A DNA stretch of 64,000 nt from a virus, in the IMG/VR virus record IMGVR_UViG_3300032235_000623, positions 32,001 through 96,000 of that record. One strand, 5' to 3'. The notes beneath the pieces were generated by a model. The model saw only the letters and a program-made list of their open reading frames with translations, ran no database searches and was not told the origin of the DNA. This document shows, in pieces, positions 11,870 to 37,200 of this stretch. How positions within the stretch are numbered: the first letter of the stretch is position 1; every line of letters begins with the position of its first letter. The translations under genes and the position numbers were made by a program.

Positions 11870-12164
11870 ATTAGGAACAGACGAAGACAAGTTCGCTTGG
11901 TGGGACATTGCAGTCTGTTCTGGCATGGAAACAAATCTTTTTTATGATACATACGAGTCTGATCATAATATTGCAAAAAATATTGATCAAGCTTGTTTAT
12001 CTTGTCCAGTTATTGCAATATGCTATAAGAATGGAACTGAGAATAATGAGTATGGAGTTTGGGGCGGAGTTTATTTAAATTTCGGCCAGCACGATAAGCA
12101 AAGAAATACGCATAAGAGTAAAGAGATTTGGAAGGAATTGAAACGTAAACATGCCCAAATCTAA
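11850..12164 (+). CDS. whiB: WhiB-family Fe-S transcription regulator
   Basis: C..C-x2-C-x5-C and GVWGG. Confidence 0.9.
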   Translation: MSNILNELGTDEDKFAWWDIAVCSGMETNLFYDTYESDHNIAKNIDQACLSCPVIAICYKNGTENNEYGVWGGVYLNFGQHDKQRNTHKSKEIWKELKRKHAQI

Positions 12165-23734: not shown

Positions 23735-24027
23735 CAGAGTACTGGTCGTATCTCTTAGCAGCAATTGGCGTTACAGGCATATTCTTTGTTGGTCGAAAGA
23801 CCATTTGGGGATGGCTGATCTTATTATTAAATGAATGTATATGGATAGCATACGCATTAGCCACGGATCAATATGGGTTCATTATCATGGCTACAGCCTA
23901 TTCTGCTGTATATATTAAATCTTTTATATCTTGGAAGAAAGAAGAAAAAGAAGAACATATCTCACAATATGAGATTAATACTCATGGTCAAATAGATCAT
24001 AGATATATACATATTGATCGCAATTAG
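23731..24027 (+). CDS. PnuC-like small membrane protein
   Basis: Three TMs, K.IWGW motif. Confidence 0.55.
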   Translation: MTEYWSYLLAAIGVTGIFFVGRKTIWGWLILLLNECIWIAYALATDQYGFIIMATAYSAVYIKSFISWKKEEKEEHISQYEINTHGQIDHRYIHIDRN

Positions 24028-24497
24028 TGAAGCGCAAAAGTAGAGAGCAGAATTTCGAATATATGACAAAAAAAGAGATCATATTCGCCTTATATAATCA
24101 AGGCATGTCGTACCGACAAATCAAAGAGCAAACTGGCTTTTCAAAAGGCACCATTTCCTATCATTTGGGCGAAGGGGTCAAAGAGAGGGCAATGGATCGG
24201 CGGAAGCAGGATAGACATAAAATTACCACCTATATCAGAGAAGAAAAGGTGGGCAAGGTATGTATGGACTGCAGAGAAGATTATCCCCATTGGATTCTAG
24301 AATTTGACCATAGACCAGGGGAGGAAAAGAAATTTACCATTGGTACCCATAATATCGCTAGAGACAAATCACTAGATGAAGTTAAAGATGAAATAGCTAA
24401 ATGTGATATCGTATGTGCTAATTGCCATAAGAATAGGACATACTGGAGAAAGCTCAAGAATGGAGTCTATCCAGCAACCAAGGAACTATACGACTAG
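24027..24497 (+). CDS. HTH + HNH endonuclease
   Basis: SYRQI..SKGTISYH; CMDC, EFDH, CANCH. Confidence 0.8.
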   Translation: MKRKSREQNFEYMTKKEIIFALYNQGMSYRQIKEQTGFSKGTISYHLGEGVKERAMDRRKQDRHKITTYIREEKVGKVCMDCREDYPHWILEFDHRPGEEKKFTIGTHNIARDKSLDEVKDEIAKCDIVCANCHKNRTYWRKLKNGVYPATKELYD

Positions 24498-25317: not shown

Positions 25318-25674
25318 AATATTACTATCAATTCATGTCTAATTACTATTATTATATATAGATAAAGATATATGAGTAATTGAACACCATCTCACAATAT
25401 GGACGTAATCCCAATTTGAGCAATTTGCAGCATATTCTGCCATTTCTGTCAATAGTGGCATATTCAGGCAATTTTGTCAAGCCTTCGTAAAGGAAAAATT
25501 GTGCCCATTTCGCCAAAAATTTGATCCAAATTCTGACAGATATTATATCTATTTTATTATATTGTTATAACATTTTGTTATATTCTATATTCATTTTGTC
25601 TTATTCTGATCAAAATTTCAGGGACATTTTATAAGCTGTCGTAAACGAATTATTTGGCCCATAATTTTTTCATA

Positions 25675-25731
25675 GAAAAAGGACCTATACATCCAAAATG
25701 TACATCATGTACAAATCGGACATATAGGTCC
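25675..25731 (-). terminator. terminator closing the minus-strand block
   Basis: GGACCTATA..TATAGGTCC inverted repeat followed by T-run on minus strand. Confidence 0.7.
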
Positions 25732-25754
25732 AGTGGAAATATGTTTATTTAGTT

Positions 25755-26162
25755 TTATGGACCAACTGTTGCAACTGCCTGGAAATGAGCTGTTTCTCCA
25801 TGGTAGTCTCCATGTAGCCATTTCTTATCAGATTCTTGATATAGGTTCTCAATTGATTTAGTTTTATGTTGTTTTACATTAGGGATTTTGATATTATTAA
25901 ATTCCCGCTTTTCTTTAACTAAGTTAATTGCTTTATGTAGGTTATTGGCTAGGATTAAGCCTTCGCTTGTATTGCCTTCCGCCAACTCAACATCATATCG
26001 TTGCTTCATTGAGAATACGATATTTACAACGAGTTCCATTACCTTATCAACTGTATAAATTGGCTGATTAGATAAATGCCGTGCCACCGCTGCCGTGTTG
26101 AAGAAATGGTCTTCGACACATGAAGCAACTGTGTCTGCTAGTTTTGTTTCTCTTGGTTGCAT
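25755..26162 (-). CDS. hypothetical protein
   Basis: Own promoter copy (26192-26213) and RBS. Confidence 0.7.
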   Translation of the reverse strand: MQPRETKLADTVASCVEDHFFNTAAVARHLSNQPIYTVDKVMELVVNIVFSMKQRYDVELAEGNTSEGLILANNLHKAINLVKEKREFNNIKIPNVKQHKTKSIENLYQESDKKWLHGDYHGETAHFQAVATVGP

Positions 26163-26240
26163 TTGTTTCCGCCTTTTCTATAGAACCGTTGATTATATCA
26201 GAAAGGGCTGACTTGCGCCAGCCCTTCCCACATTATGAGA

Positions 26241-26387
26241 TTACTTCTTTGAGCTTGGGGTTTCTGCTGTAAACTTGATACCCTGCTTCTCTGCCTCTGC
26301 AAGTACGTTCTTTGCAGCTGATGAGAAACGACCACGGCGGCCTACAGAGATTCCCTTTGATACTAGATATTCACGCTTTGTTGTCAT
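26241..26387 (-). CDS. Lsr2 C-terminal-domain-like mini DNA-binding protein (48 aa)
   Basis: KREYLVSKGISVGRRGRFS; GAAAGGA RBS; TTTACA-17-TATAAT promoter. Confidence 0.65.
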   Translation of the reverse strand: MTTKREYLVSKGISVGRRGRFSSAAKNVLAEAEKQGIKFTAETPSSKK

Positions 26388-26513
26388 TTGATTTGATCCT
26401 TTCATGATCGGTTGTTATATATATTATATAAGATATTCACGAATTTGTAAATACCCTCGTAACTATTTTTTTTATCCCTTATATGTTTATTTAGTTATAT
26501 TAAATTAGTTATA

Positions 26514-27729
26514 TTAATTAACTAATTCGTAGTCATATGGGTCAATAGAGTTATCTATCTCTAATTGGATCCATTCTGTTCTATCTGCAGCATCAGCCTT
26601 TTCATAGGCCTCCTGCAAGCTTTCCGCCTCCACCTCCAGATAATACTTGTCTACAAGGTCTCCGAATATTTTGAATTTAGTCATCCTCTTCCTCCTCATC
26701 TTCTTCAAACATTAAGTCTGTCATAATATCATTATCTGTCATCCAGTCACGTACATCTTCGTAGTGCTGTTCTGCCCCGTATTCTAGAGAGAACCCGTGT
26801 CCGTTTTTAACAGACTCACACAGCCTGTCCCATACCTCATCCTCTGACATCTCAAAGCGGTACTCCTCATCGGCCATAAAACCCTTGATTGTGCTCCAGG
26901 TCCATAGCCAAACCAGGGATAGCCCCAGGTCCGTTGTATCTAGGATATCGAGACATTGGTTTAGTTTATCTTTATCTTGTGGCTTCACGTTGCTTGGTCC
27001 TTTCATTAATTGAGAATGCTAATTGATAAGTTAATCCATATACAGCAGTCAAGGCGTCCATATAGCCTTCGTTGTACAGCCGCTCCACAGTGTCATCGTA
27101 GTCTTCATCTGAGCCCAATTCATTTGAGTTCTGTAGAAGAGGAACGAGGACCTGCTCGCATTCATACATCATGTTCTTCAATTCACCATGCAGAATGTCT
27201 GTCCCTGACTCACCAAGGTCGACGAGTTTCTGCAGGCGTGGTTCTAGTTCTGTAGTGTTCATTGGGCCATTATATCCTCTGCCACTGACAAAAAGTGGCG
27301 GGTAGCAATAATCTGTCCATTGATAGAGATATCCTCAATCTCTAAAGACTGATACTCATTTGATTCCATTTCTTCAAATAAATCCATTTCAGCCTGTAGA
27401 GCCTCAGAATCTTGCTCTAAACTAATTAGATGTAACTTCATATATTCGATTAATTGATTAGACATTTACTACCTCATATCTTTGAGTTAATCTATCATAA
27501 TATCTAGCAGCCTGACATGTGCAACTAAATATACCTGGTACATCTGAACATTCCCATTTATGTTCATGCATGATCGAAATACCCTTCTGCCCATAGGCCT
27601 TGTAAGAAATCATGAGCCATAACTAAATAATTATGAATTGCAGGATTATCATCAGCATTGACCAATAGGTCAGCTTGATAAACACCATACGTCATATCTG
27701 CTAAATCTTTTTGTGTGTAGCCCAACATT
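26514..27729 (-). CDS. run of small acidic hypothetical proteins (26514..26684, 26677..26988, 26972..27262, 27259..27465, 27564..27729)
   Basis: Overlapping start/stop coupling. Confidence 0.7.
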
Positions 27730-27891
27730 ATTTTACTTCCCAATACTCTAGTATTAGATTTAATGCAGAATGGATATTGCAATCACAATCCCCACCCATG
27801 TTATCCATAAATTCTAGATGACTATAATTGTCATCATAGATTTCATCTACTAATTGACCTACTGTCATTGCTCTTAGTTTGCTAATAGTTC

Positions 27892-28665
27892 TCATGCTTC
27901 CACCTTTTCTGTAGATTCCAATAATACACTATGGGTCTGACATTCTTTCATAGCCTCTTCATCCTGCCAAGAGCCTTGGTTGCATTCTGAGCAGAATTCA
28001 CCACAGTCATCTTCACAATAATCTAATGTATTAAATGATTGGCAAGCATAGCAGCGATTCTCATATTCTAGAATCTCTTTTACTTCACCACGGACAATCT
28101 CATATTCCCCACCCCAACCTGTTTCTTCCTCATACTCCAATGTGAGCAGGCAGTTTGGAACAAGATTAGATAGTTTAGTTAGAATAGTTACAGCAGGTGA
28201 CCATGCAGTCTCATATTTATAGACAACCCAGTTGTCATCACCATCTGACTTATATTCAATTATTTCTGTGTTTGGATACTTGTCATCATCAGATACAGCC
28301 ACATCCCATTTGGTGCCCCAATTAGAATTATTCCATGAGTACCAATCCTTTTGAGTCTTAGCAAACTCAACAGATTTAGCAAACCAATTAGGGTCCTTCA
28401 TATCTACACCATCACGTGCAGGCTGGCAGGCATACTCCTCATCAGTAATACCTTCATCTTTATATGAGTGGATATTAAAGAAAGCAAAGACAGGATTAGA
28501 ATAAGTTACTTCTTTAAATTTGGTGGGGAAACCCATAGATGAAATATCACCCATACCATGTGTCTCAATAGCCAATGTAAAAGGCTTATTCAATCTATCT
28601 TTAATCATATCTACCTCAGACTTAGGTCCTTGGATAGTCAATGTGTTATATACCCAATTTGGCAT
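27892..28665 (-). CDS. DUF1281/YubB-like phage protein
   Basis: MPNW..N.L.I.G, DWYSWN..NWGTKWD, ETAWSP. Confidence 0.75.
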   Translation of the reverse strand: MPNWVYNTLTIQGPKSEVDMIKDRLNKPFTLAIETHGMGDISSMGFPTKFKEVTYSNPVFAFFNIHSYKDEGITDEEYACQPARDGVDMKDPNWFAKSVEFAKTQKDWYSWNNSNWGTKWDVAVSDDDKYPNTEIIEYKSDGDDNWVVYKYETAWSPAVTILTKLSNLVPNCLLTLEYEEETGWGGEYEIVRGEVKEILEYENRCYACQSFNTLDYCEDDCGEFCSECNQGSWQDEEAMKECQTHSVLLESTEKVEA

Positions 28666-28826
28666 TATCGGCACACTCGCTTTGTTACATATTTGTAATA
28701 TGTATATGCTTTAGAAGATTTATCCTTAACTTGATATCTCTTATATGTACATACCTCAGCATTTGCTGGGGCGGAAACAATAGGAAGTAATCCTAGTATA
28801 ATACCTGCGATAATAGTTTTACGCAT
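28665..28826 (-). CDS. small secreted cationic two-Cys peptide
   Basis: Signal peptide ending ANA; mature EVCTYKRYQVKDKSSKAYTYYKYVTKRVCR; ACGAAAGGA RBS. Confidence 0.7.
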   Translation of the reverse strand: MRKTIIAGIILGLLPIVSAPANAEVCTYKRYQVKDKSSKAYTYYKYVTKRVCR

Positions 28827-28909
28827 TTTATATCCTTTCGTTGATATAAGAGAATTATACATTGGACCACCGACAAATGGAATAGATATGCTGTGTGAAT
28901 TGGACCACA

Positions 28910-28983
28910 TTGTTAGGTTTTGATCAAAGCTTGTTAGGTTTAATTAGATCTATTGTTAGATTTTATCAATCATTGTTAGGTTT
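28910..28983 (+). repeat. iteron-like direct repeats TTGTTAGRTTT x4
   Basis: Starts 28910, 28931, 28953, 28973. Confidence 0.8.
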
Positions 28984-29064
28984 GTGGTCAATATCACAGA
29001 ATTTCAGGAGATTTTGACTTGACCTCGTAAAAGAAATAATGTACTCTCTTGTCTTTGTGGGCAT

Positions 29065-29219
29065 AAAAAGATCCCCCGCCGATACCGCAGTATCAAGCGG
29101 GGGAATTATAGTAGGGCTGCCTGGCCAAACGAAAGGAATTAAGTAAATGCCTGCGTACTTAGCGACTTGGCGAATGCCTTAGTAGCCGCACCCCACATCC
29201 AAAGACAAACTAGTTGCCT
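29065..29219 (-). ncRNA. candidate ~150-nt sRNA with anti-SD tract and terminator
   Basis: TGATATAAT at 29226-29234, nested stems, CCCCCGC..GCGGGGGATCTTTT terminator. Confidence 0.45.
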
Positions 29220-29231
29220 AGGATTATTATA

Positions 29232-30199
29232 TCATACTGGAAGAAGTTCGTCCGAATACTTTTCACAGAATGCGGACAGGTCCATGGTAAATAAAGCCTC
29301 ATTCTTCATTCCACGTACCTTGTTTGACTGATTCCTAAAGTCATCTTGCTCATGAAGACTAAAGGTTTGGTCCTTCCAATTAATTACAGGAATCTTGTGC
29401 TCATTGTCTGATAGAGAGTTGACCTGTAGACCCCAGCCAGTCTCCATATTCCATTGGTCACCAATTAGACGTGATGTAGCAATGCGTGTTGCATATGAAT
29501 CATCGTTCCAACGTGCTCGTGCATGGACTACAGCATCCGCTAAATTCTTTAGCATGTCATAGCCAGCCCAGTGTCCGTATAGTACAATTGTCTCTCCGCT
29601 ATCCTGTACGAATACGAAGTTTGCTCTGTTACCCATTTTATTCCGCCGTTTCTAGTTGAGGTGTTTCTTCTGTCTTATTCAATTCTATAATTTCATATGA
29701 CACCTTGTCAAGTGCCTCTTTATTTTTATTGTAGTGGTGCCCGCAGAAAGCTAGCTCGCCTTCTACTAATTTAATTAAATACATAGCTTGGGCGGACCCA
29801 CATTGGTCGCAGCCAATCCATCTATTTAAATCGTCTGTGCTCATATATTATTCTCTTCGATCATATCAGCAAGACGGTCAAGCAACCAGGTATCGATATC
29901 GTTAATATCAATCTCTCGTAACTTTTCTATGATTTCTTCACGAGCAAATTTATACCCGTCATCAAATCCATCTTTATAATCTGACATATTATCTCCTAAT
30001 AACCTGTTGTTTCATATTCGCTAAAATAAGTTTCAGTTAAGTTAAACTTATCTCTAATGCGACTTACTTTCTCAATACTACCAGTTCCAATGTTGAAAGT
30101 CAACGGTCCAATTAGTTGAGGGTCAAGTCCAGTTATCTCGGCATCCCAGAAGGCCCTTTGCAGGGCCAACTGAGATGGAGCGGTGAGTTCAAAATACAT
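29232..30199 (-). CDS. small hypothetical proteins (29232..29636, 29638..29844 Cys/His-rich, 29996..30199)
   Basis: ORF track, coupled starts. Confidence 0.7.
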
Positions 30200-30855
30200 T
30201 AGTAAGCCTCACGAACATGGCAGACTTCTTGCTCATCAATAACGATGTTGCCATCCTGTGCATCGACATATAGCGCATCTGTAATTTCTGATTCAAGGTC
30301 ATAATCTTCTAATAGATTTAGTGTAATTGTTCCGCTAACTTCAACAGTTGCGGTAAATTCCACATCCTTGGTTAATTCAATGCCAAGCGCTTCAGCAATT
30401 GACTGCAAAGTATCTTGGTCGTCTGAATCAGCATATGACTCAAGAATAATATCTTTAACTGTATTAATCTTAGACTGAAGCAGGCTAACAGTTTTCTGTG
30501 ACTGTCGTCCATTGTGCAGGTCCCACTCAAGAGATGCAACCTTTGATGTTGTATATTCAGGGTCAGAATATCCGTGAATAACTTTATATGTAACTAGTAA
30601 ATCAGGATTGTAAGCAACTGCAGGTGAATGAAATGCATCTGAGCCAATTGTTGTTGTTTCCATCGTTTCCTCTTTCGTTGTAGTTATAGGTGGTATTGTA
30701 GCATCTTCCACTGACAATAATGTGCAATTAGAGTTGCAACGACATGTGAGGTCCATCACACCCGCTGGCCATCCATATCCATCTTTAATTGTATATTCGA
30801 TTAAAGCATCACAGTCTCCCGTGCATACCCAGGTGTATTTCTGATATGTTGTCAT
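30199..30855 (-). CDS. hypothetical protein with internal in-frame promoter/RBS/start at 30663
   Basis: Leaderless-type start 30855; second cassette 30695-30716 inside frame. Confidence 0.65.
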   Translation of the reverse strand: MTTYQKYTWVCTGDCDALIEYTIKDGYGWPAGVMDLTCRCNSNCTLLSVEDATIPPITTTKEETMETTTIGSDAFHSPAVAYNPDLLVTYKVIHGYSDPEYTTSKVASLEWDLHNGRQSQKTVSLLQSKINTVKDIILESYADSDDQDTLQSIAEALGIELTKDVEFTATVEVSGTITLNLLEDYDLESEITDALYVDAQDGNIVIDEQEVCHVREAY

Positions 30856-30980
30856 GGCGAGTATTGTACAGGACCCCACTGACATTTACAAGGATTTTCG
30901 GGAAAAAGCTTTGTGATACGTAACACATTTTTTTGGCCTTCAGATCTGGGGGCATCTCATTATCTGAGATTCAAATCTTG

Positions 30981-31054
30981 CGATCTGTATGGGACTTGAA
31001 CCCACGACCTCTACCGTGACAGGGTAGCGCTCTAACCAACTGAGCTAACAGACC
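30981..31054 (-). tRNA. tRNA-Asp(GUC)
   Basis: GGTCTGT/ACAGATC, loop CTGTCAC, TTCAAGT. Confidence 0.93.
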
Positions 31055-31095
31055 AAATGGTGAGCAGTTTTAAATCTTGCTCAGGATTTTATTAT

Positions 31096-32103
31096 TTAGA
31101 AGGCTTTAACCAACTTCATAATTTTATTTTTTTCTGCAGTTAAGATTGGGTCAAAACCGCTTGCACCCGCCATTAGGGATTCAGAATTTCCACGTGATGT
31201 GCGGAAATAATCTAGACGTTCAGTTAGCGCATTGAATGCACCCCACTTTGTGCCCTTGATATTAGCGTTAGTTGGTGAGTTATGATACAAGTCATCAAGA
31301 AGAACAACTTTGTTTTCCCACTTTGTGAGAGCAATTTTAGATGCATCTTCTTTTGGCTTTGGATAAATTGTCTGAATCAACTTTGAAAATTCGGCGTTAG
31401 TAATCTCTTGCTTGAAGAGTTCCTGCGCTTCTTTTTCAAATTCATCAAAGTAACCAAGTGCAAGACCAAGAGTCTCACGAGCAACTTGAATGCGACCTTC
31501 TACAGATTGCGTGTGGCGAATCTTGAAAGATTGCTTTGCATTACGCATTGCAAGATTCAAAGTGTTTTGGCATACAACACGAACAGGGGTAATTGCTGCT
31601 TGAACAGCAACAGAACCGTCGTGTGATGTCCATACAATTAAATAAAGTTTAGTTGCATCGTTAGCGCCTTGTGGGTCAAGCACCATTGTGCGAGGAATAT
31701 CCACAGTGCCGAAAACAACTTTGCCCTTTTTCAATGAGCCAGCAGATTCCCAACGGCAGTCAGCGTTGGCATCATGAATTGCATCAGCGAATGCAAACAA
31801 TTCTTCATTCTGCACAGGCTTGTAGCGCTTTCCAACAGTTGCAAGAACATCAGTCCCGCCATTGAATGGATTAGTGCGAACAACTAAAGATGAATTTGAA
31901 ACATCGTTCCAAGATTCGTCAATGTGATTTGTGATTGGAGATAAACGAACATCCCAATTTGCTAACTTTGCTTCTTCAAGCATTGTTGCAGTTGTAACTT
32001 CCTCATCTTGTGAGAAGATACGATTTGCAAGGTTGTGCCATGCAGGAGCGCCACGAAGAGCAAATGCAACTTCGCCGTTTTCGACTTCGAGATTGTGAGC
32101 CAT
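31096..32103 (-). CDS. DUF932/DUF945-family (TIGR03299-like) phage protein
   Basis: PAWH.L, VG.RY.PVQN, SHDGS, TPVRVVCQNTL, WGAFNALTE; start MAHNLE after CGAAAGGA. Confidence 0.85.
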   Translation of the reverse strand: MAHNLEVENGEVAFALRGAPAWHNLANRIFSQDEEVTTATMLEEAKLANWDVRLSPITNHIDESWNDVSNSSLVVRTNPFNGGTDVLATVGKRYKPVQNEELFAFADAIHDANADCRWESAGSLKKGKVVFGTVDIPRTMVLDPQGANDATKLYLIVWTSHDGSVAVQAAITPVRVVCQNTLNLAMRNAKQSFKIRHTQSVEGRIQVARETLGLALGYFDEFEKEAQELFKQEITNAEFSKLIQTIYPKPKEDASKIALTKWENKVVLLDDLYHNSPTNANIKGTKWGAFNALTERLDYFRTSRGNSESLMAGASGFDPILTAEKNKIMKLVKAF

Positions 32104-32281
32104 ATTTTTTCCTTTCGGTTGATTGATTTGGCAATTATAGCAGGGGGGTCTGACATTGTAAAGGATTAAAGATAAGATGTCCGAATTGTCTAACGTGATC
32201 AATCTCACAAAATTTTGGGAGTTTTCCACAGCTCGTCGTAAGCCTGTGGATAACCCCTCAGTTGTTGCGGGCACAATTTGA

Positions 32282-32305
32282 GGGGCGGGAAAAAGATCCC
32301 GCCCC
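32282..32305 (-). terminator. GC-rich hairpin terminator
   Basis: GGGGCGGGA..TCCCGCCCC just after stop of 32311..32568. Confidence 0.6.
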
Positions 32306-32310
32306 AAGCT

Positions 32311-34305
32311 TTAAACTAGTCCCAACTCTTCAGAAGTTAGTTTATATTTATTGTGTTTGTTTACTGTTTCCATTGGTAGAAAGATTGCTAGCGTCTTCTG
32401 CTTCTTCTTATTATCATAAACATAAGCACGAACAGTGCCAGCAAATCTACGTAGGTTTGAGAATACCATTTCAGATAGATATTCTCTATTTACTCCCTCA
32501 TCAGAATAAATAGTTAAATCATTTGCTTTGTTATCATCATAGATTTCAACTCTAAAACGATTTTTCATTTGATTACTTTCTGTTAGTAGTTATTTTGGTT
32601 GAGCAGTTTAGCACTTGACTTACTCAGGTCAGGGTTCTTTTGCTTTAGAGTATTCTAACATAGGGGGCTAGTTTTGTCTAGCCCCCATTTTATTAGAGAT
32701 ACTTAGCAATTTGCTTCATAGTAGAAGCATTTACTGTTTCCTCATCTGTCATCTTGAGAATTGTTAGGGCATTTGTGATGTCCTCTACAATTTCATTGTA
32801 TGTGTGTTGGTGCATGATTGTGAAATCACGCTCAGGCTCTTTAGGGAAATCGCTTTCCTTTACAATTAAATCAAAATCAACATTGAGAGAGTTGTTCCAA
32901 GAGCGATAGTTTGTGCGGAAGTTTTCAGCCTTCTTGATGTTTGCAATAGCAAAATCCTGAACTTCCTTACGCCACTTTTCTCTTGACTTCTCATACTTCG
33001 CTTCGTTTGCACCCTGCTCAGCATAGTCTTTCTTGATTGTTGCCAACTTTGTTTCCAAAGCCTTGATTACCTTTGGTGTTGCCACCTTTACTGTGATTGC
33101 TCTTGACATAGTTTTTCCTTTTCTATTTGGTTGAGGTTTTAGTATAACATAGGGGTCTGACAAACCCCGTAGGGTGAGAGTTCTTACTTACGACATTGGG
33201 CGAGAACACTCTCTAAACTGCCCCTGTTTCGATTTACTTACTCAGCGTATGCAGAAGTCCAACGCTCTGTGCCATTTACATCTAGCAAGATACGATTAAC
33301 TCCGCTTGGGTGATTATCAACCGCTTTGATAATACCTGTGATACCGCTTGCTGTTGTTGTGTATGTCTGACCGATTTCCATTTGTTTCTCCTTTGTTTGT
33401 TTGTTGGTAGTATTATAGCCTATGCCACTGACATTTTTAGTCTTCTTCGGTGTAATCTTCCTCACACCAGGCGCTTAGGTGGTGCTGTTCAATAATTGCC
33501 CAGGCAGGCGCTGTATCCATGCCTCGATAAGATACTCCTTCAGGCATTGAGATTTCACGATTTAGATCGTCTTCCCAGTATGCATCTATAGCATCTATGC
33601 AAGGTTGCACCATTGATAGCGGGACGGGTGGATAGTGATTACCCTGTAAGTGATAACCAATTGAAGCTTCTAGGCTTAAGCCCAATTCATCTGTTGCTAA
33701 TTCATAAGCAAGATTACTTCCCATTTATAACCTCGTTTCCAATAGTTTCCATTTCGTCAATAGACTCCATAAGTTCTTTTACTTGACTTTCGGTAAGTAG
33801 AATTTTAGTTGCCTTATCTACTGCAAGGCTAGCGATAGCGCATGAGTAAAGATAAATTCCTTTAGCAAATTCTTCATTACTCATTTCGTTATGATTATGT
33901 GTTAGGTATCCAGCAAGCCCCATAACTTCTTCGTCCATTATAGAGTCGCTAGTTGCTTCGATTAGAGCATAAGCGGTTGATAGCATTTTTTCCCTTTCGT
34001 TTGTTTTATGGAATTATAGCAGGTGGGTCTGACAAGCAGACCCACCCTATCAATTATGCTAGGGCTATGTAAGCCTGAGAGTAGCCTTCATTTACACGGT
34101 CAAGTTCATCCTGAATTTCAGACTTAGACATTAGAGAAACTTTGCCGATTAACTCACGAATAGCGCCTTCGTTCATCTGATTAAAGATAGCGGTTGGCAT
34201 TTTGCTTACTTGCTGATACATTGAACCTTCGATATCCAGTTTAGATACGAATTCTACGCCATCAACTGTGAATGGAAATAATGCCCATCTAGTCATATCT
34301 TTCAT
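32311..34305 (-). CDS. small hypothetical proteins (32311..32568, 32693..33109, 33238..33381, 33437..33724, 33714..33986, 34054..34305)
   Basis: Most have their own promoter copy and RBS. Confidence 0.7.
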
Positions 34306-34485
34306 TGTTTTACCTTTCGTTTGTGTTATGCGAGTATTATAGCGGAATGCTCTGACAAATCATAATCCATTTACGGCGTGTCGCAGCTTTTGTGATAAAC
34401 CTCACAAATTTTCAGGGTTTTCCACAGGTACCCGTAAATTGTGGATAACCCCCACGCCTTTGCGGGCATTTAGTTGAAATTTCAA

Positions 34486-36861
34486 CTAATTAAAAAATGG
34501 AGCTACAAGATCACAATAAGTTTTTAAATATTTTTCTTTTTTGTGTTTTGTTTTGCGTGTGTATTTTTTCTTTGAGGGGATCGGAGTCGCCGCATTACTG
34601 CGGCGCAACTCCTGAACCTTCTTTACTTTTTCTGTTGCCATTTTATCCTCTCGAATTAAAACTAGGAACTTGATAACCACTCGCCTCATGAAATTTTGTT
34701 ACGTTAAAATTTGGATTTTCTTTTGCACACAATTCTGAAAAATCTAAAACCATTTTAGAAAAAACAGCGGGATGAGTTTTGTTAGAATTATACTTAAGAA
34801 TTTCAGCGATAGCCTCGAAGTGCTTGCGTGTCATTGTCATACTGTTACAACCTTTCGTCCTTCACGATAGAAAATTTTTGTGTAGCATTTTGCAGATGGT
34901 GTAAAGATATTTACAGTTGAGTATTCGTTAGCGAAACCCCAATCTGTGAAAGCAAAAAAATCTTTCCATGCTGCCATTTCATCATCATATTCATGAGACC
35001 AATGCGGAGCATTTGAATCATAAGCCAAAGTAATTTTATACATTAGATATTCCAATCGTCTAGAGCACACTCACACGCTTCTACATCATAATTATTTTCA
35101 TCTCCCCAAAATAGGAAACCTGCACCACCGCACTCATCACAAGCAACGGCAATAATTTCTTTTAAGTCTGACATTAGTTTTCCTTTCGTTCTGTTGTTGA
35201 AATTGTAGCAGATAGCACCGACAAGGCTTCGGATTTGCTTGCTTGGCGTGTCGCTAGGATATGAGCCTTAAATTCTTCTAGGTTCATTAGAGAGCACCTT
35301 CCTGAAATAACTCGATTTCGATATCTAACTTTTTTTCATCTGATAATTCATCGAACGAAACCCAGCCTGCGCCTTCTTCGTCCATTTTAAAAAATTCAAT
35401 GTATCCCATTATTATTCACCTACCTTTACTGCAACTGTTCGGAAAGTTGTGCGGAAAGAGTTTTTAGGTTGAACCTCGACAAGATAAGAATCGCAACCTT
35501 CATACCAAACCGCTTTAGGGTGAGGTTCTGCGTTAATGATAATTCCCTCAAGAGTCTTTGAGAAATATTGCTTACCTACTAAGAGGTTCTGGACTGAATA
35601 TACATTTGCTGACATGGTGTCCGCCTTTCGTTTGTTTCTATATCTGGAATTATACACGAACGGACTGACATTTTCCAATTTGGCAAGGGTTTGTCTCAAT
35701 ATGTGGAGCGTGGGCTATGTGATAAGCATCACACGCCTAATGTGATAACCATCACACCAAAATGTCCGTTTTGTCTGTCAAATCGACACGCCGTAGAATT
35801 TGGGGCTTTTGATAACGATTACGTAACGACACGCCCGACGCCGCAGTATTTGCGGGCCAGCTTGATTTTGTCAAGTCGACACGCCGTTAGTTAGCGAAAA
35901 TCTTTTATGACTTCCCTCACATCTTGTTTTAATTCGTGCCACATCATGCGCCCCATATATAGGGCGGGGATCGCAAGGGCTAATTGTACTAGTGTGGTTA
36001 GTAGTCTATTCATTACTTATCTCCAAACATATCGAAAACTTCATCTAGTTGTTCATCTGTTAAGTGGTCAATACTAATAGCCTTAGTAAATCCGAACACA
36101 TCTTCTTCTTCTGCCATTAGATTTTCATACATTTCTTCTTCTGCTAGGTGTGCGTACTGGTCGCTTACATCTGCTTGAATAGTATCCCATTTAGTCATCA
36201 TTACTTATTTACCTCTACTTCTCTAACGATAAAGGAAAACCCTTTACCTAATTTGTTTAGTTCTTCAATTACGGCTAAGATTTCTTCGGGCTTATTAGCC
36301 TTGTTATTAACGCTTAGTAGTTGAGAGCCTTGCCATAGTGAGTAAGTGATAGTCATTCGTTTTCTTCTTTCGTTAGTTTGTTTAATAAGATTAAGGTACT
36401 ACATAGGGCTGACATTTGCAACCCTAAAGGGGGTGTGTTGCGTGTGAGTTACCTCACAGGCAGTTTATACACTCACAACCCTTAGAGCGGATAAGGTAGG
36501 CTAACACCTCTTTACGGGTATAAGCGTCTAGACCATAGGAGGACTTAACGCCTCCATTGTGGTATTCATGCACGATAGTGCTAAATAGTGTTTCTGTTAG
36601 TTGAGTCATTTGTGACTCCTTTCGTTTATTTATTAGGATAATCTTTTCATACTTATTTAATTTTTTCAAGTCTATTTGGTGTGGTGTCTATCACACTAGG
36701 CTAGGGGACTTATCGTAGGTGTAGCCTACGCCTGTCTCATAGTATGCGAACATCTGTTCGGTTTTATGAGTTCTATCTACTGTGCAGAACATGTCCTGCG
36801 GTTCGCCTGTCCAATTACAGGAGAGGCACTTACTTACTAGGTGTGATAATACTTTTGTCAT
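34486..36861 (-). CDS. small hypothetical proteins (34486..34641, 34643..34840, 34837..35043, 35412..35615, 36013..36201, 36454..36609, 36691..36861 and shorter ones)
   Basis: RBS cassettes and coupling. Confidence 0.65.
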
Positions 36862-37200
36862 TTTCTGACCTTTCTAGTTAATCACCTTGATTAACTTTCT
36901 TTATACTATAATCATATAACGGGGGTCTGACAAAAATCAAGTCGCAACACGGATAAATCGGACATTTTGAAAACTAATTTCAAAAAACCCTGTGATATGC
37001 CTCACAAACATGGGCGCACTATCCGAAATGTCCGAATTTCTACAGGTGTGTATCATACAAATAAAAAATTTATTAACATTTTTAGAAATCTGATTTTGCA
37101 GCTGATCGCAAAAACGCAAAATTCAAAAAAATATTTTTATTAACATTTCATAAACTTGAAATATCAGTTGACTAGAATTTAATTGATATATAATAGATAC

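Follow-up and report, generated by a model that had tools for sequence, protein, structure and literature searches.

One known repeat of temperate actinophages is the stoperator, a single 13-bp repressor site that recurs genome-wide in cluster A mycobacteriophages such as L5 and is presumed to act on polymerase as it passes. Actinobacterial Crp/GlxR sites, like class I CRP-dependent promoters, are marked by the palindrome TGTGA-N6-TCACA. The terminal repeat of phage T5 includes one long tract of untranslated DNA, the injection-stop region (Repeat Region 3), with 8 DnaA boxes (10.1101/866236); in halovirus HF2, contiguous promoter repeats of the archaeal type lie between genes and are active in reporters (PMC8707807). 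The PeSL (promoter-early stem-loop) cassettes of T4-type phages consist of a terminator stem-loop and an ordinary early promoter, and their paralogues are similar enough to recombine (PMC2839356, PMC4122927). Here, we describe a dispersed element, designated the frame, that recurs between the early genes of a lake phage represented by an uncultured 108.8-kb virus record (IMGVR_UViG_3300032235_000623). The analysis covers a 64,000-nt stretch of this record (bases 32001–96000; the window), and all coordinates are positions in the window. We tentatively favor a reading in which the frame acts as a docking site for proteins on double-stranded DNA at the head of each early transcription unit.

Along the plus strand, the unit begins with a CRP-type box (TGTGA-N6-TCACA) and continues in order with AAATTYCAGGG, slot 1, C(G/T)TAA, slot 2, CCCC, and TTGCGGGC. 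About 30 positions are invariant and held at fixed spacing; the two slots differ in content, not in length. No description of such a gapped, slot-bearing design was found in the literature searched. By layout, its nearest published analogue is the PeSL cassette. Both are short composite intergenic repeats that lie between small, fast-changing early genes, both connect a stem-loop belonging to one unit with the control region of the unit after it, and both are located at mosaic junctions. Unlike PeSLs, the frame has gapped invariant blocks with exchangeable inserts, its paralogues share only short identical runs, and the promoter that follows it, which is of PafBC type, is separate from the motif and lies 26–196 bp away. 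The feature that defines a PeSL, namely a motif that contains the early promoter of the downstream gene, is therefore absent. Stoperators resemble the frame in being asymmetric, in occupying short intergenic gaps of actinophages, and in keeping one orientation relative to transcription; in contrast, the frame is an 80-bp composite confined to the early block of a phage without an integrase or a recognizable repressor. The likeness to CRP-dependent promoters lies in the perfect or near-perfect TGTGA-N6-TCACA box, which occupies a fixed register ~63 bp upstream of the start predicted for one class of copies (class 1). However, this box is absent from compact and class 3 copies, and its distance to the gene-sense promoters varies, from roughly -61 to -85. 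It should be regarded as a putative Crp-type site in a phage that lacks a Crp-type helix-turn-helix (HTH). The frame and the T5 region are alike in that each belongs to the part of a large virulent phage that is expressed first, and each is made up of repeats that are non-coding and conserved and that include palindromes, inverted repeats, and an ordered set of DnaA boxes (10.1101/866236). The frame differs from a single long tract of the T5 type in that DnaA pairs occur in about half of 5–10 intergenic copies that are dispersed over 10 kb, and its invariant blocks are unrelated. The HF2 repeats are likewise conserved, ~30–60 bp in length, and positioned upstream of units in a large virulent virus (PMC8707807), whereas promoter elements are found in only one class of frame and are directed away from the genes.

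The full and partial copies in the window, with their component parts, are as follows.

28983–29062, plus strand: copy 1, full, class 1 (profile E 2.8e-15); CRP-like box 28983–28998, AATTTCAGG 29000–29008, TTGACC 29019–29024, CGTAA 29026–29030, TACTCT 29042–29047, TTGTGGGC 29055–29062.
30894–30953, plus strand: copy 2, full, divergent compact subclass (pattern match, missed by the profile at E<0.01); ATTTTCGGG 30894–30902, CGTAA 30919–30923, TGGGGGC 30947–30953; CRP-like palindrome TGTGATACGTAACACA at 30912–30927, centered on CGTAA.
32194–32272, plus strand: copy 3, full, class 2 (profile E 6e-17); CRP-type box 32194–32209, AATTTTGGG 32211–32219, DnaA box TTTTCCACA 32222–32230, CGTAA 32237–32241, DnaA box TGTGGATAA 32245–32253, CCCC 32254–32257, TTGCGGGC 32265–32272.
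34391–34467, plus strand: copy 4, full, class 2 (profile E 2.3e-12); CRP-type box TGTGATAAACCTCACA 34391–34406, ATTTTCAGGG 34408–34417, TTTTCCACA 34418–34426, CGTAA 34433–34437, TGTGGATAA 34440–34448, CCCCC 34449–34453, TTGCGGGC 34460–34467.
35797–35857, plus strand: copy 5, full, class 3, GACACG type (profile E 2.2e-9); AATTTGGGG 35797–35805, CGTAA 35822–35826, CGACACGCCCGAC 35827–35839, inverted repeat GCCGCA/TGCGGGC ending at 35857.
25614–25660, plus strand: partial copy (profile E 1.2e-5); AATTTCAGGG, CGTAA 25640–25644, GCCC.
25462–25506, plus strand: partial weak copy (profile E 0.003); ATTCAGG, CGTAA 25486–25490, GCCC.

The frame was first noticed in a sequence-only reading that listed eight CGTAA positions, all of which are present as given. 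In the five full copies (CGTAA at 29026, 30919, 32237, 34433, and 35822), a GG lies 17–19 bp upstream and a TGNGGGC ends 34–36 bp past the C of CGTAA. Copy 2 lacks the flanking CRP box and abuts a promoter at 30884. Copy 5 lacks the box in register and has two CRP-type boxes further on, at 35718–35733 and 35741–35756. The partial copy at 25614–25660, which lies just past the terminator hairpin of the block's last gene, has neither a CRP box nor the TTGCGGGC block.

The pattern CGTAA-N22-27-TGNGGGC is matched 5 times in the window, always on the plus strand, against an expectation of 0.04 from 100 dinucleotide shuffles, none of which reached 5. A listing of every CGTAA on both strands of the 108.8-kb genome revealed no further site with both flanking blocks. 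These two results rule out chance as the source of the frame. An nhmmer profile built from 96 distinct copies in relatives recovered four full copies (E 6e-17 to 2e-9) and two partial copies at 25609–25667 (E 1e-5) and 25459–25507 (E 0.003), and matched nothing else across the 109-kb phage genome. The divergent copy at 30919 escaped the profile at E<0.01, and its compact subclass recurs in relatives (the group with d=34–36). Thus, the dispersed frame is confirmed, and a gapped profile does not match the genome at chance frequency, the outcome that would have spoken against the original observation. Of three partial sites proposed at the outset, those at 25486 and 25640 are matched by the profile; the third, at 26458, is missed by the profile and overlaps an ordinary minus-strand TTTACA-N17-TATAAT promoter, and was dropped as a member.

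Relatives were collected as 80 viral loci (L001–L080) through the DUF932 protein encoded in the same block (78–91% identity), and an exact pattern scan added 35 more. The profile matched the 80 loci 499 times, always on the strand opposite DUF932 and never on the other. Spacing and orientation are therefore kept lineage-wide, and a loss of spacing in relatives, the other outcome that would have counted against the original observation, did not occur. Alignment columns from 168 distinct full-length copies define the near-invariant positions, which are, in order, TGTG(A)-N6-TCAC(A); AAAtTyCaGGgg; C(G 73%/T 21%)TAA; CCCC; nCA; and TTG(C)GGGC. The block first written as CGTAA therefore varies at its second base. 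Insertions and deletions are found almost nowhere but in the loop of the CCCnCA/TGnGGG repeat, at a single slot 1 column, and at the junction that follows the CRP-type box. The unit measures ~80 bp rather than the ~60 bp first proposed because the CRP-type palindrome sits in a fixed register and belongs to it. In our own reading of the columns, the CG step of CGTAA would lie midway between two inverted G-tracts, YCAGGG and CCCnCA, to which TTGCGGGC would add a third of like form. The block CCCTGAAATTT of compact copies directly abuts TGTCAG. Upstream of DUF932, an orthologous DnaA-type copy is found in 79 relatives, which are all those in which both flanking genes were found.

Slot content divides the 168 distinct copies into classes with paired DnaA boxes (79 copies), TTGAC ... 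TACCCT (42 copies), GACACGCCCGAC (27 copies), and others (20 copies), the last of which include CRP-like palindromes centered on CGTAA. In the window, the copy at 29026 belongs to class 1, those at 32237 and 34433 are of the DnaA type, that at 35822 is of the GACACG type, and that at 30919 is compact and CRP-centered. Two words recur at 35700–35900 and in relatives: GGCGTGTCG(A), which contains GACAC, is found within and beside frames, often adjoining TTGACA, and (A)ATTCGGACA, or TCGGACA, is found between CRP-type boxes and promoters.

The frames lie in a minus-strand island (25.2–37.15 kb; ~35 small genes) of an otherwise plus-strand genome, and the initial claim that full copies stand between transcription units holds. 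In gene sense, each full copy comes after a palindrome or terminator and before a PafBC-type promoter, and thereby splits tightly packed runs of genes. PafBC-type (the RecA-NDp form) is an adopted, putative label for TGTCRG-N10-TANNNT, whose pattern and strand bias were checked here. The flanking features, in order of position, are listed below.

28854–28875, minus strand: PafBC-type promoter TGTCGG-N10-TATAAT, downstream of copy 1 in gene sense.
29065–29104, minus strand: terminator hairpin CCCCCGC...GCGGGGG with T-tract, which ends a small-RNA gene; copy 1 is next in gene sense.
30863–30884, minus strand: PafBC-type promoter TGTCAG-N10-TACAAT, abutting copy 2.
30954–30970, no strand assigned: palindrome ATCTCATTATCTGAGAT, between tRNA-Asp and copy 2.
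32134–32155, minus strand: PafBC-type promoter TGTCAG-N10-TATAAT of the DUF932 gene, 81 bp past the TTACG of copy 3.
32282–32305, no strand assigned: GC-rich hairpin GGGGCGGG-N8-CCCGCCCC, between the upstream gene (stop 32311) and copy 3.
34336–34357, minus strand: PafBC-type promoter TGTCAG-N10-TATAAT, 75 bp past the TTACG of copy 4.
34470–34489, no strand assigned: perfect AT-rich 20-bp palindrome TTAGTTGAAATTTCAACTAA, adjoining the TTGCGGGC end of copy 4.
35649–35670, minus strand: PafBC-type promoter TGTCAG-N10-TATAAT, 151 bp past the TTACG of copy 5.
35861–35875, no strand assigned: palindrome CTTGATTTTGTCAAG, next to copy 5; in relatives, CTTGACAnTGTCAAG forms lie beside many copies.

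The palindrome TTAGTTGAAATTTCAACTAA adjoins copies in relatives as well (L026, L028, and L048); it is probably an operator rather than a terminator because no T-tract follows it. The arrangement extends beyond the window. The 50-nt segment before the copy folds at -12 kcal/mol or better in 62% of distinct copies, compared with 10% of random control segments, and 231 of 240 distinct copies are followed in gene sense by a PafBC-type promoter no more than 400 bp away, mostly at 34–92 bp. With respect to the junction of a stem-loop and the next early control region, the frame thus resembles a PeSL. Distances from TTACG to TGTC peak at 80–81, 88–89, 75, 68–70, and 34–36 bp. Within the block (27290–36932), TGTCRG-N10-TANNNT has 14 minus-strand matches, 9 of which have no frame upstream, compared with a single plus-strand match across all 109 kb of the genome. 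At two internal PafBC-type promoters on the minus strand (33130–33170, GGGGTTTGTCAGACCCC; 34000–34040, GGGTGGGTCTGCTTGTCAGACCCACC), TGTCAG lies inside a GC-rich hairpin, so that the -26 box could be hidden or exposed by DNA or RNA structure.

The frame is inherited with its promoter side ~5 times more often than with its hairpin side. Among 835 pairs of copies with similar cores from different contigs, flank homology extends to both sides in 168, to the promoter side only in 227, to the hairpin side only in 47, and to neither in 393. Upstream of DUF932, the alignment begins at the GCCCGCA edge, and the terminators and genes before this edge differ. Gene-sense promoters within the frame itself were also sought, and rejected: TTACG as -35 with TGAAAT as -10 (19-bp spacer), SigF/SigB with GGGTA, sigma-54, and PafBC registers were tried by eye, and none fits the spacing or the key bases.

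In the reading that we favor, the frame would be the outer, upstream portion of the control region of every early unit. Along the minus strand, the order of a unit head is the stable hairpin or terminator of the previous unit, GCCCnCA-loop-TGnGGGG, slot 2, TTA(C/A)G, slot 1, CCCTGRAATTT, usually a CRP-type box, a spacer of 0–120 bp, and a PafBC-type promoter (TGTCRG-N10-TANNNT). One dedicated sequence-specific factor, from phage or host, would read the invariant blocks by contacting CGTAA and three TTnnGGG-like G-tracts, two of which are inverted about the CG of CGTAA. The slots and the flanking box would dock host proteins that differ from copy to copy (DnaA, a Crp/GlxR-type regulator, and sigma-A RNA polymerase), and the assembled complex may act on the early promoter that comes next, as a gate or a booster, and insulate it against read-through. 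From the observed anatomy, conservation, strict orientation, position, and promoter-side linkage of the frame, we infer protein binding, the identities of the proteins, and the sign of the effect. Among the functions originally suggested, binding or wrapping by a protein fits best: short blocks lie at fixed spacing over ~65–80 bp, protein sites are recognizable in the slots, DnaA boxes flip orientation among orthologous copies, and a common RNA fold is absent.

Several observations weigh against protein docking at unit heads. Class 1 carries a convincing sigma-A promoter that faces the other way. Neither of the partial copies at the block end is followed by a PafBC-type promoter, and the distance from frame to promoter varies from 26 to 196 bp. 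These distances show a 10.3–10.5-bp periodicity across 56 architecture representatives (Rayleigh p about 3e-5), which weakens to p = 0.013 if every distance is used just once and is not significant when adjacent distances are merged; helical phasing of frame to promoter is suggestive only. The search for a reader among the phage's own proteins was negative. Pfam identified no DNA-binding family, only DUFs, in the 10 largest and 10 further small minus-strand open reading frames (ORFs) of the block, PHROGs identified none in 13 of these 20, and Sigma70_r2 and Crp-type HTH domains were not found in the phage. Nor was a WYL domain found there. The possibility that the phage copied a regulatory site of its host was rejected. 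Across 185,579 species-representative cellular genomes (GTDB-wide), the frame pattern has 4 matches, all in GC-rich, unrelated taxa, which equals our estimate for chance, and none is supported by the profile.

On the motif strand, class 1 copies resemble sigma-A promoters. Among 52 distinct copies, TTGACN at -35 is separated by a spacer of 17 bp in 31 and 18 bp in 20 from a -10 element that reads TACCCT in 47, and 38 carry a TG extension. The consensus in relatives is TTGACN-N17/18-(TG)nTACCCT, and copy 1 has TTGACC-N17-TACTCT; no such -35/-10 pair is found in the DnaA, GACACG, or compact classes. The last T of TACCCT is kept in 41 of 42 class 1 copies despite breaking the CCCnCA/TGnGGG repeat. 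Judged by these elements, class 1 carries a convincing, backward-facing promoter of the sigma-A type, and at least the class 1 copy therefore has an output of its own. The promoter is directed away from the early genes and into the terminator of a conserved non-coding gene:

29065–29226, minus strand: conserved small-RNA (non-coding) gene, with an extended -10 TGATATAAT at about 29218–29226.

This gene comprises a TGnTATAAT promoter, the sequence CCTTTCGTTGG, and the terminator, and it lies directly before the class 1 copy in 12 of 12 genomes inspected. Its CCTTTCGTTTGG is complementary to AACGAAAGG ribosome-binding sites of early genes. The class 1 output is probably an antisense partner of the small RNA. 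Four direct ~20-bp repeats (core TTGTTAGGTTT, period 20–21 bp) occupy 28908–28983, between copy 1 and the promoter at 28875. They resemble replication-origin iterons or a regulator array; the insert is present in relative L072 and absent from most relatives.

The main rival, which we consider unlikely, though more probable than the others below, is that the frame as a whole is a plus-strand promoter of a new class, antisense to the early genes and used by host polymerase with an unrecognized sigma factor or adaptor. YCAGGG would serve as an ECF-like -35 and CGTAA as the -10, with a 16-bp spacer, or else CGTAA would be a '-26 element' and CCC would lie inside the -10. Sites for host factors within the slots would then be operators, and the transcripts would oppose read-through or shut off early units. 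Such a role accords with the span (64–80 bp) and fixed spacing of the frame, which are like a polymerase footprint, and with the presence of one copy at the 3' end of each early unit, facing back into it. In class 1, where TTGACN-N17/18-(TG)n-TACCCT (TG in 38/52) is found, the central bases of the -10 hexamer are the invariant CCC, and by our reckoning the CRP-type box is centered near -63, close to the class I activator position. However, three-quarters of copies lack any -35/-10 pair, the plus-strand ORFs that follow copies are not conserved, and inheritance goes with the flank behind such a promoter rather than the flank to be transcribed (227 vs 47). Spacing is as tight downstream of CGTAA as upstream, which a simple -35/-10 promoter does not need. 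The interval from YCAGGG to CGTAA fits an ECF-type promoter, but the -35 lacks the usual AAC and no sigma gene was found in the phage; a weak Sigma70_r4_2 match (24075–24182) falls within the HTH of an HNH endonuclease and was rejected as a sigma factor. The earlier suggestion of a promoter for a virion factor survives only in that one class does carry a promoter, which is of the ordinary sigma-A type. The least probable of the explanations is a structured RNA (a processing site, attenuator, or antitermination signal) in early transcripts or their antisense. Where its DnaA boxes are inverted, a copy folds into a long hairpin whose loop contains CGUAA (z = -1.9 to -2.8), and the CCCnCA/TGnGGG repeat has compensatory variants such as CCCTCAA/TTGAGGG and CCCCCAA/TTGGGGG. 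Folding is notable only in these inverted-box copies; class 1 scores above 0 on both strands (z = +0.8, +1.1; worse than shuffles), and in the class 3 copy just one of the strands folds well. Upstream of DUF932, the second DnaA box of orthologous copies is either inverted (CTGTGGAWAA) or direct (TTATCCACAA). This switch destroys the hairpin, and because the box occurs in either orientation, it is the DnaA box itself that is kept. The central pair of the short repeat is standard or G-T in just 74 of 165 distinct copies (1 of 42 in class 1), wobble-type pairs show no strand preference (T-G 7, A-C 15), and the stems are invariant and the loops variable. Rfam yields tRNAs alone in the window. A common RNA structure was rejected on the grounds that there is no shared fold, the central pair is mostly unpaired, and no Rfam family beyond tRNAs is found; the evidence favors action of the frame as DNA rather than RNA. 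A coding role was rejected as well: the plus-strand ORFs after copies (29167, 32262, 34497, and 35907) have stops or lack coverage in relatives, and the minus-strand ORFs that overlap them are mostly kept open.

The main role of the frame might instead be evolutionary, as a PeSL-like terminator-promoter junction at which early cassettes are exchanged among co-infecting relatives, which we regard as improbable. The block is strongly mosaic, both flanks are unrelated in 393 of the 835 similar-core pairs, one-flank breaks fall mostly at the hairpin-side edge, and the composite of hairpin and promoter resembles PeSLs (PMC4122927). Yet breakpoints are equally frequent at gene boundaries without a copy (for example, 26440, 28640, 28800, 33200, 33640, and 35040), no excess of breaks at copies over other gene boundaries was seen, and the cassette-exchange function suggested at first finds little support. 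Paralogous copies share identical runs of only 5–13 nt and are therefore a poor substrate for homologous exchange; no serine (PF00239) or tyrosine (PF00589) recombinase was matched at E<=1 in this 91%-complete genome. Moreover, recombination alone leaves ~30 invariant positions at fixed spacing unexplained. Still more doubtful is a mark on virion DNA or a signal for entry, either a strand-specific nick, as in T5, phiKMV-like phages, and tf, or a DnaA-dependent point at which the entering genome is tethered or pauses, as has been proposed for the T5 injection-stop region. Every copy is on the same strand, which is non-coding, as is the strand nicked in phiKMV-like phages (PMC3517423); TTGCGGGC is GC-rich, as is the T5 nick consensus R/GCGCRGG (PMC3517423); and the commonest class has paired DnaA boxes in its slots, a feature that recalls the 8 ordered boxes of the T5 injection-stop region (10.1101/866236). 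Beside the block, the second-last plus-strand gene before it encodes the HNH endonuclease (24027–24497, 156 aa), which has an N-terminal HTH and is probably a homing or nicking enzyme. Against such a mark, known nick motifs are short contiguous words of 7–19 bp rather than 80-bp gapped frames (PMC3517423), the strand bias is wholly confounded with gene orientation, only about half of copies have DnaA boxes, copies are scattered between genes over 10 kb rather than gathered in a single untranslated region, and the T5 entry model is itself an untested proposal (10.1101/866236). A related idea, to which we assign an equally small likelihood, is that the phage uses the frames to switch on its PafBC-type early promoters. 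PafBC, an alarm protein of the host, is activated by single-stranded DNA and is able to bind internal gaps (PMC11804915). Each frame would expose a single-stranded patch next to the promoter that it heads, either because virion DNA is nicked or gapped on one specific strand within the invariant GC-rich block or because DnaA or polymerase opens the slots, and this patch could activate PafBC locally and immediately upon genome entry. If true, this scheme would provide a role for the long-unexplained localized nicks of phage genomes and would explain how a phage can rely on a DNA-damage activator in an undamaged cell.

Freshwater actinobacteria are abundant, and gene control in their phages is known from sequence only because such phages are not yet routinely grown. 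Protein docking at the frame would suggest a modular design in which one invariant frame, through its slots, plugs early units into DnaA, a Crp-type regulator, and the housekeeping polymerase, next to promoters that copy host DNA-damage promoters. A single dedicated reader, if it exists, would be a master organizer of host takeover; if the frame is instead a promoter, it would represent a new promoter class. Its profile and pattern are a compact handle by which this phage lineage and its early regions can be recognized in metagenomes.

An actinobacterial host fits this phage because its portal shares up to 57–59% identity with those of BillNye-type Streptomyces phages and because it encodes a WhiB-family protein (11898–12071, plus strand; Pfam Whib, E 3e-10), a possible phage-encoded partner for host sigma-A. 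The block has no megablast match among GenBank phages. Streptomyces phage BillNye, a distant cultured relative whose portal is 57% identical, has no PafBC-type promoters in its right 50 kb, where the frame profile gives a single weak, unconvincing match. The virus record has a G+C content of 37%, and the window contains nine tRNA genes. The minus-strand island includes the DUF932 gene (31096–32103/32307) and tRNA-Asp (30980–31054, minus strand). Where the plus-strand genes converge on the end of the minus-strand block, the gap between them is occupied by an AT-rich 21-bp sequence repeated three times in tandem (25544–25607), which lies between the two partial copies of the frame.

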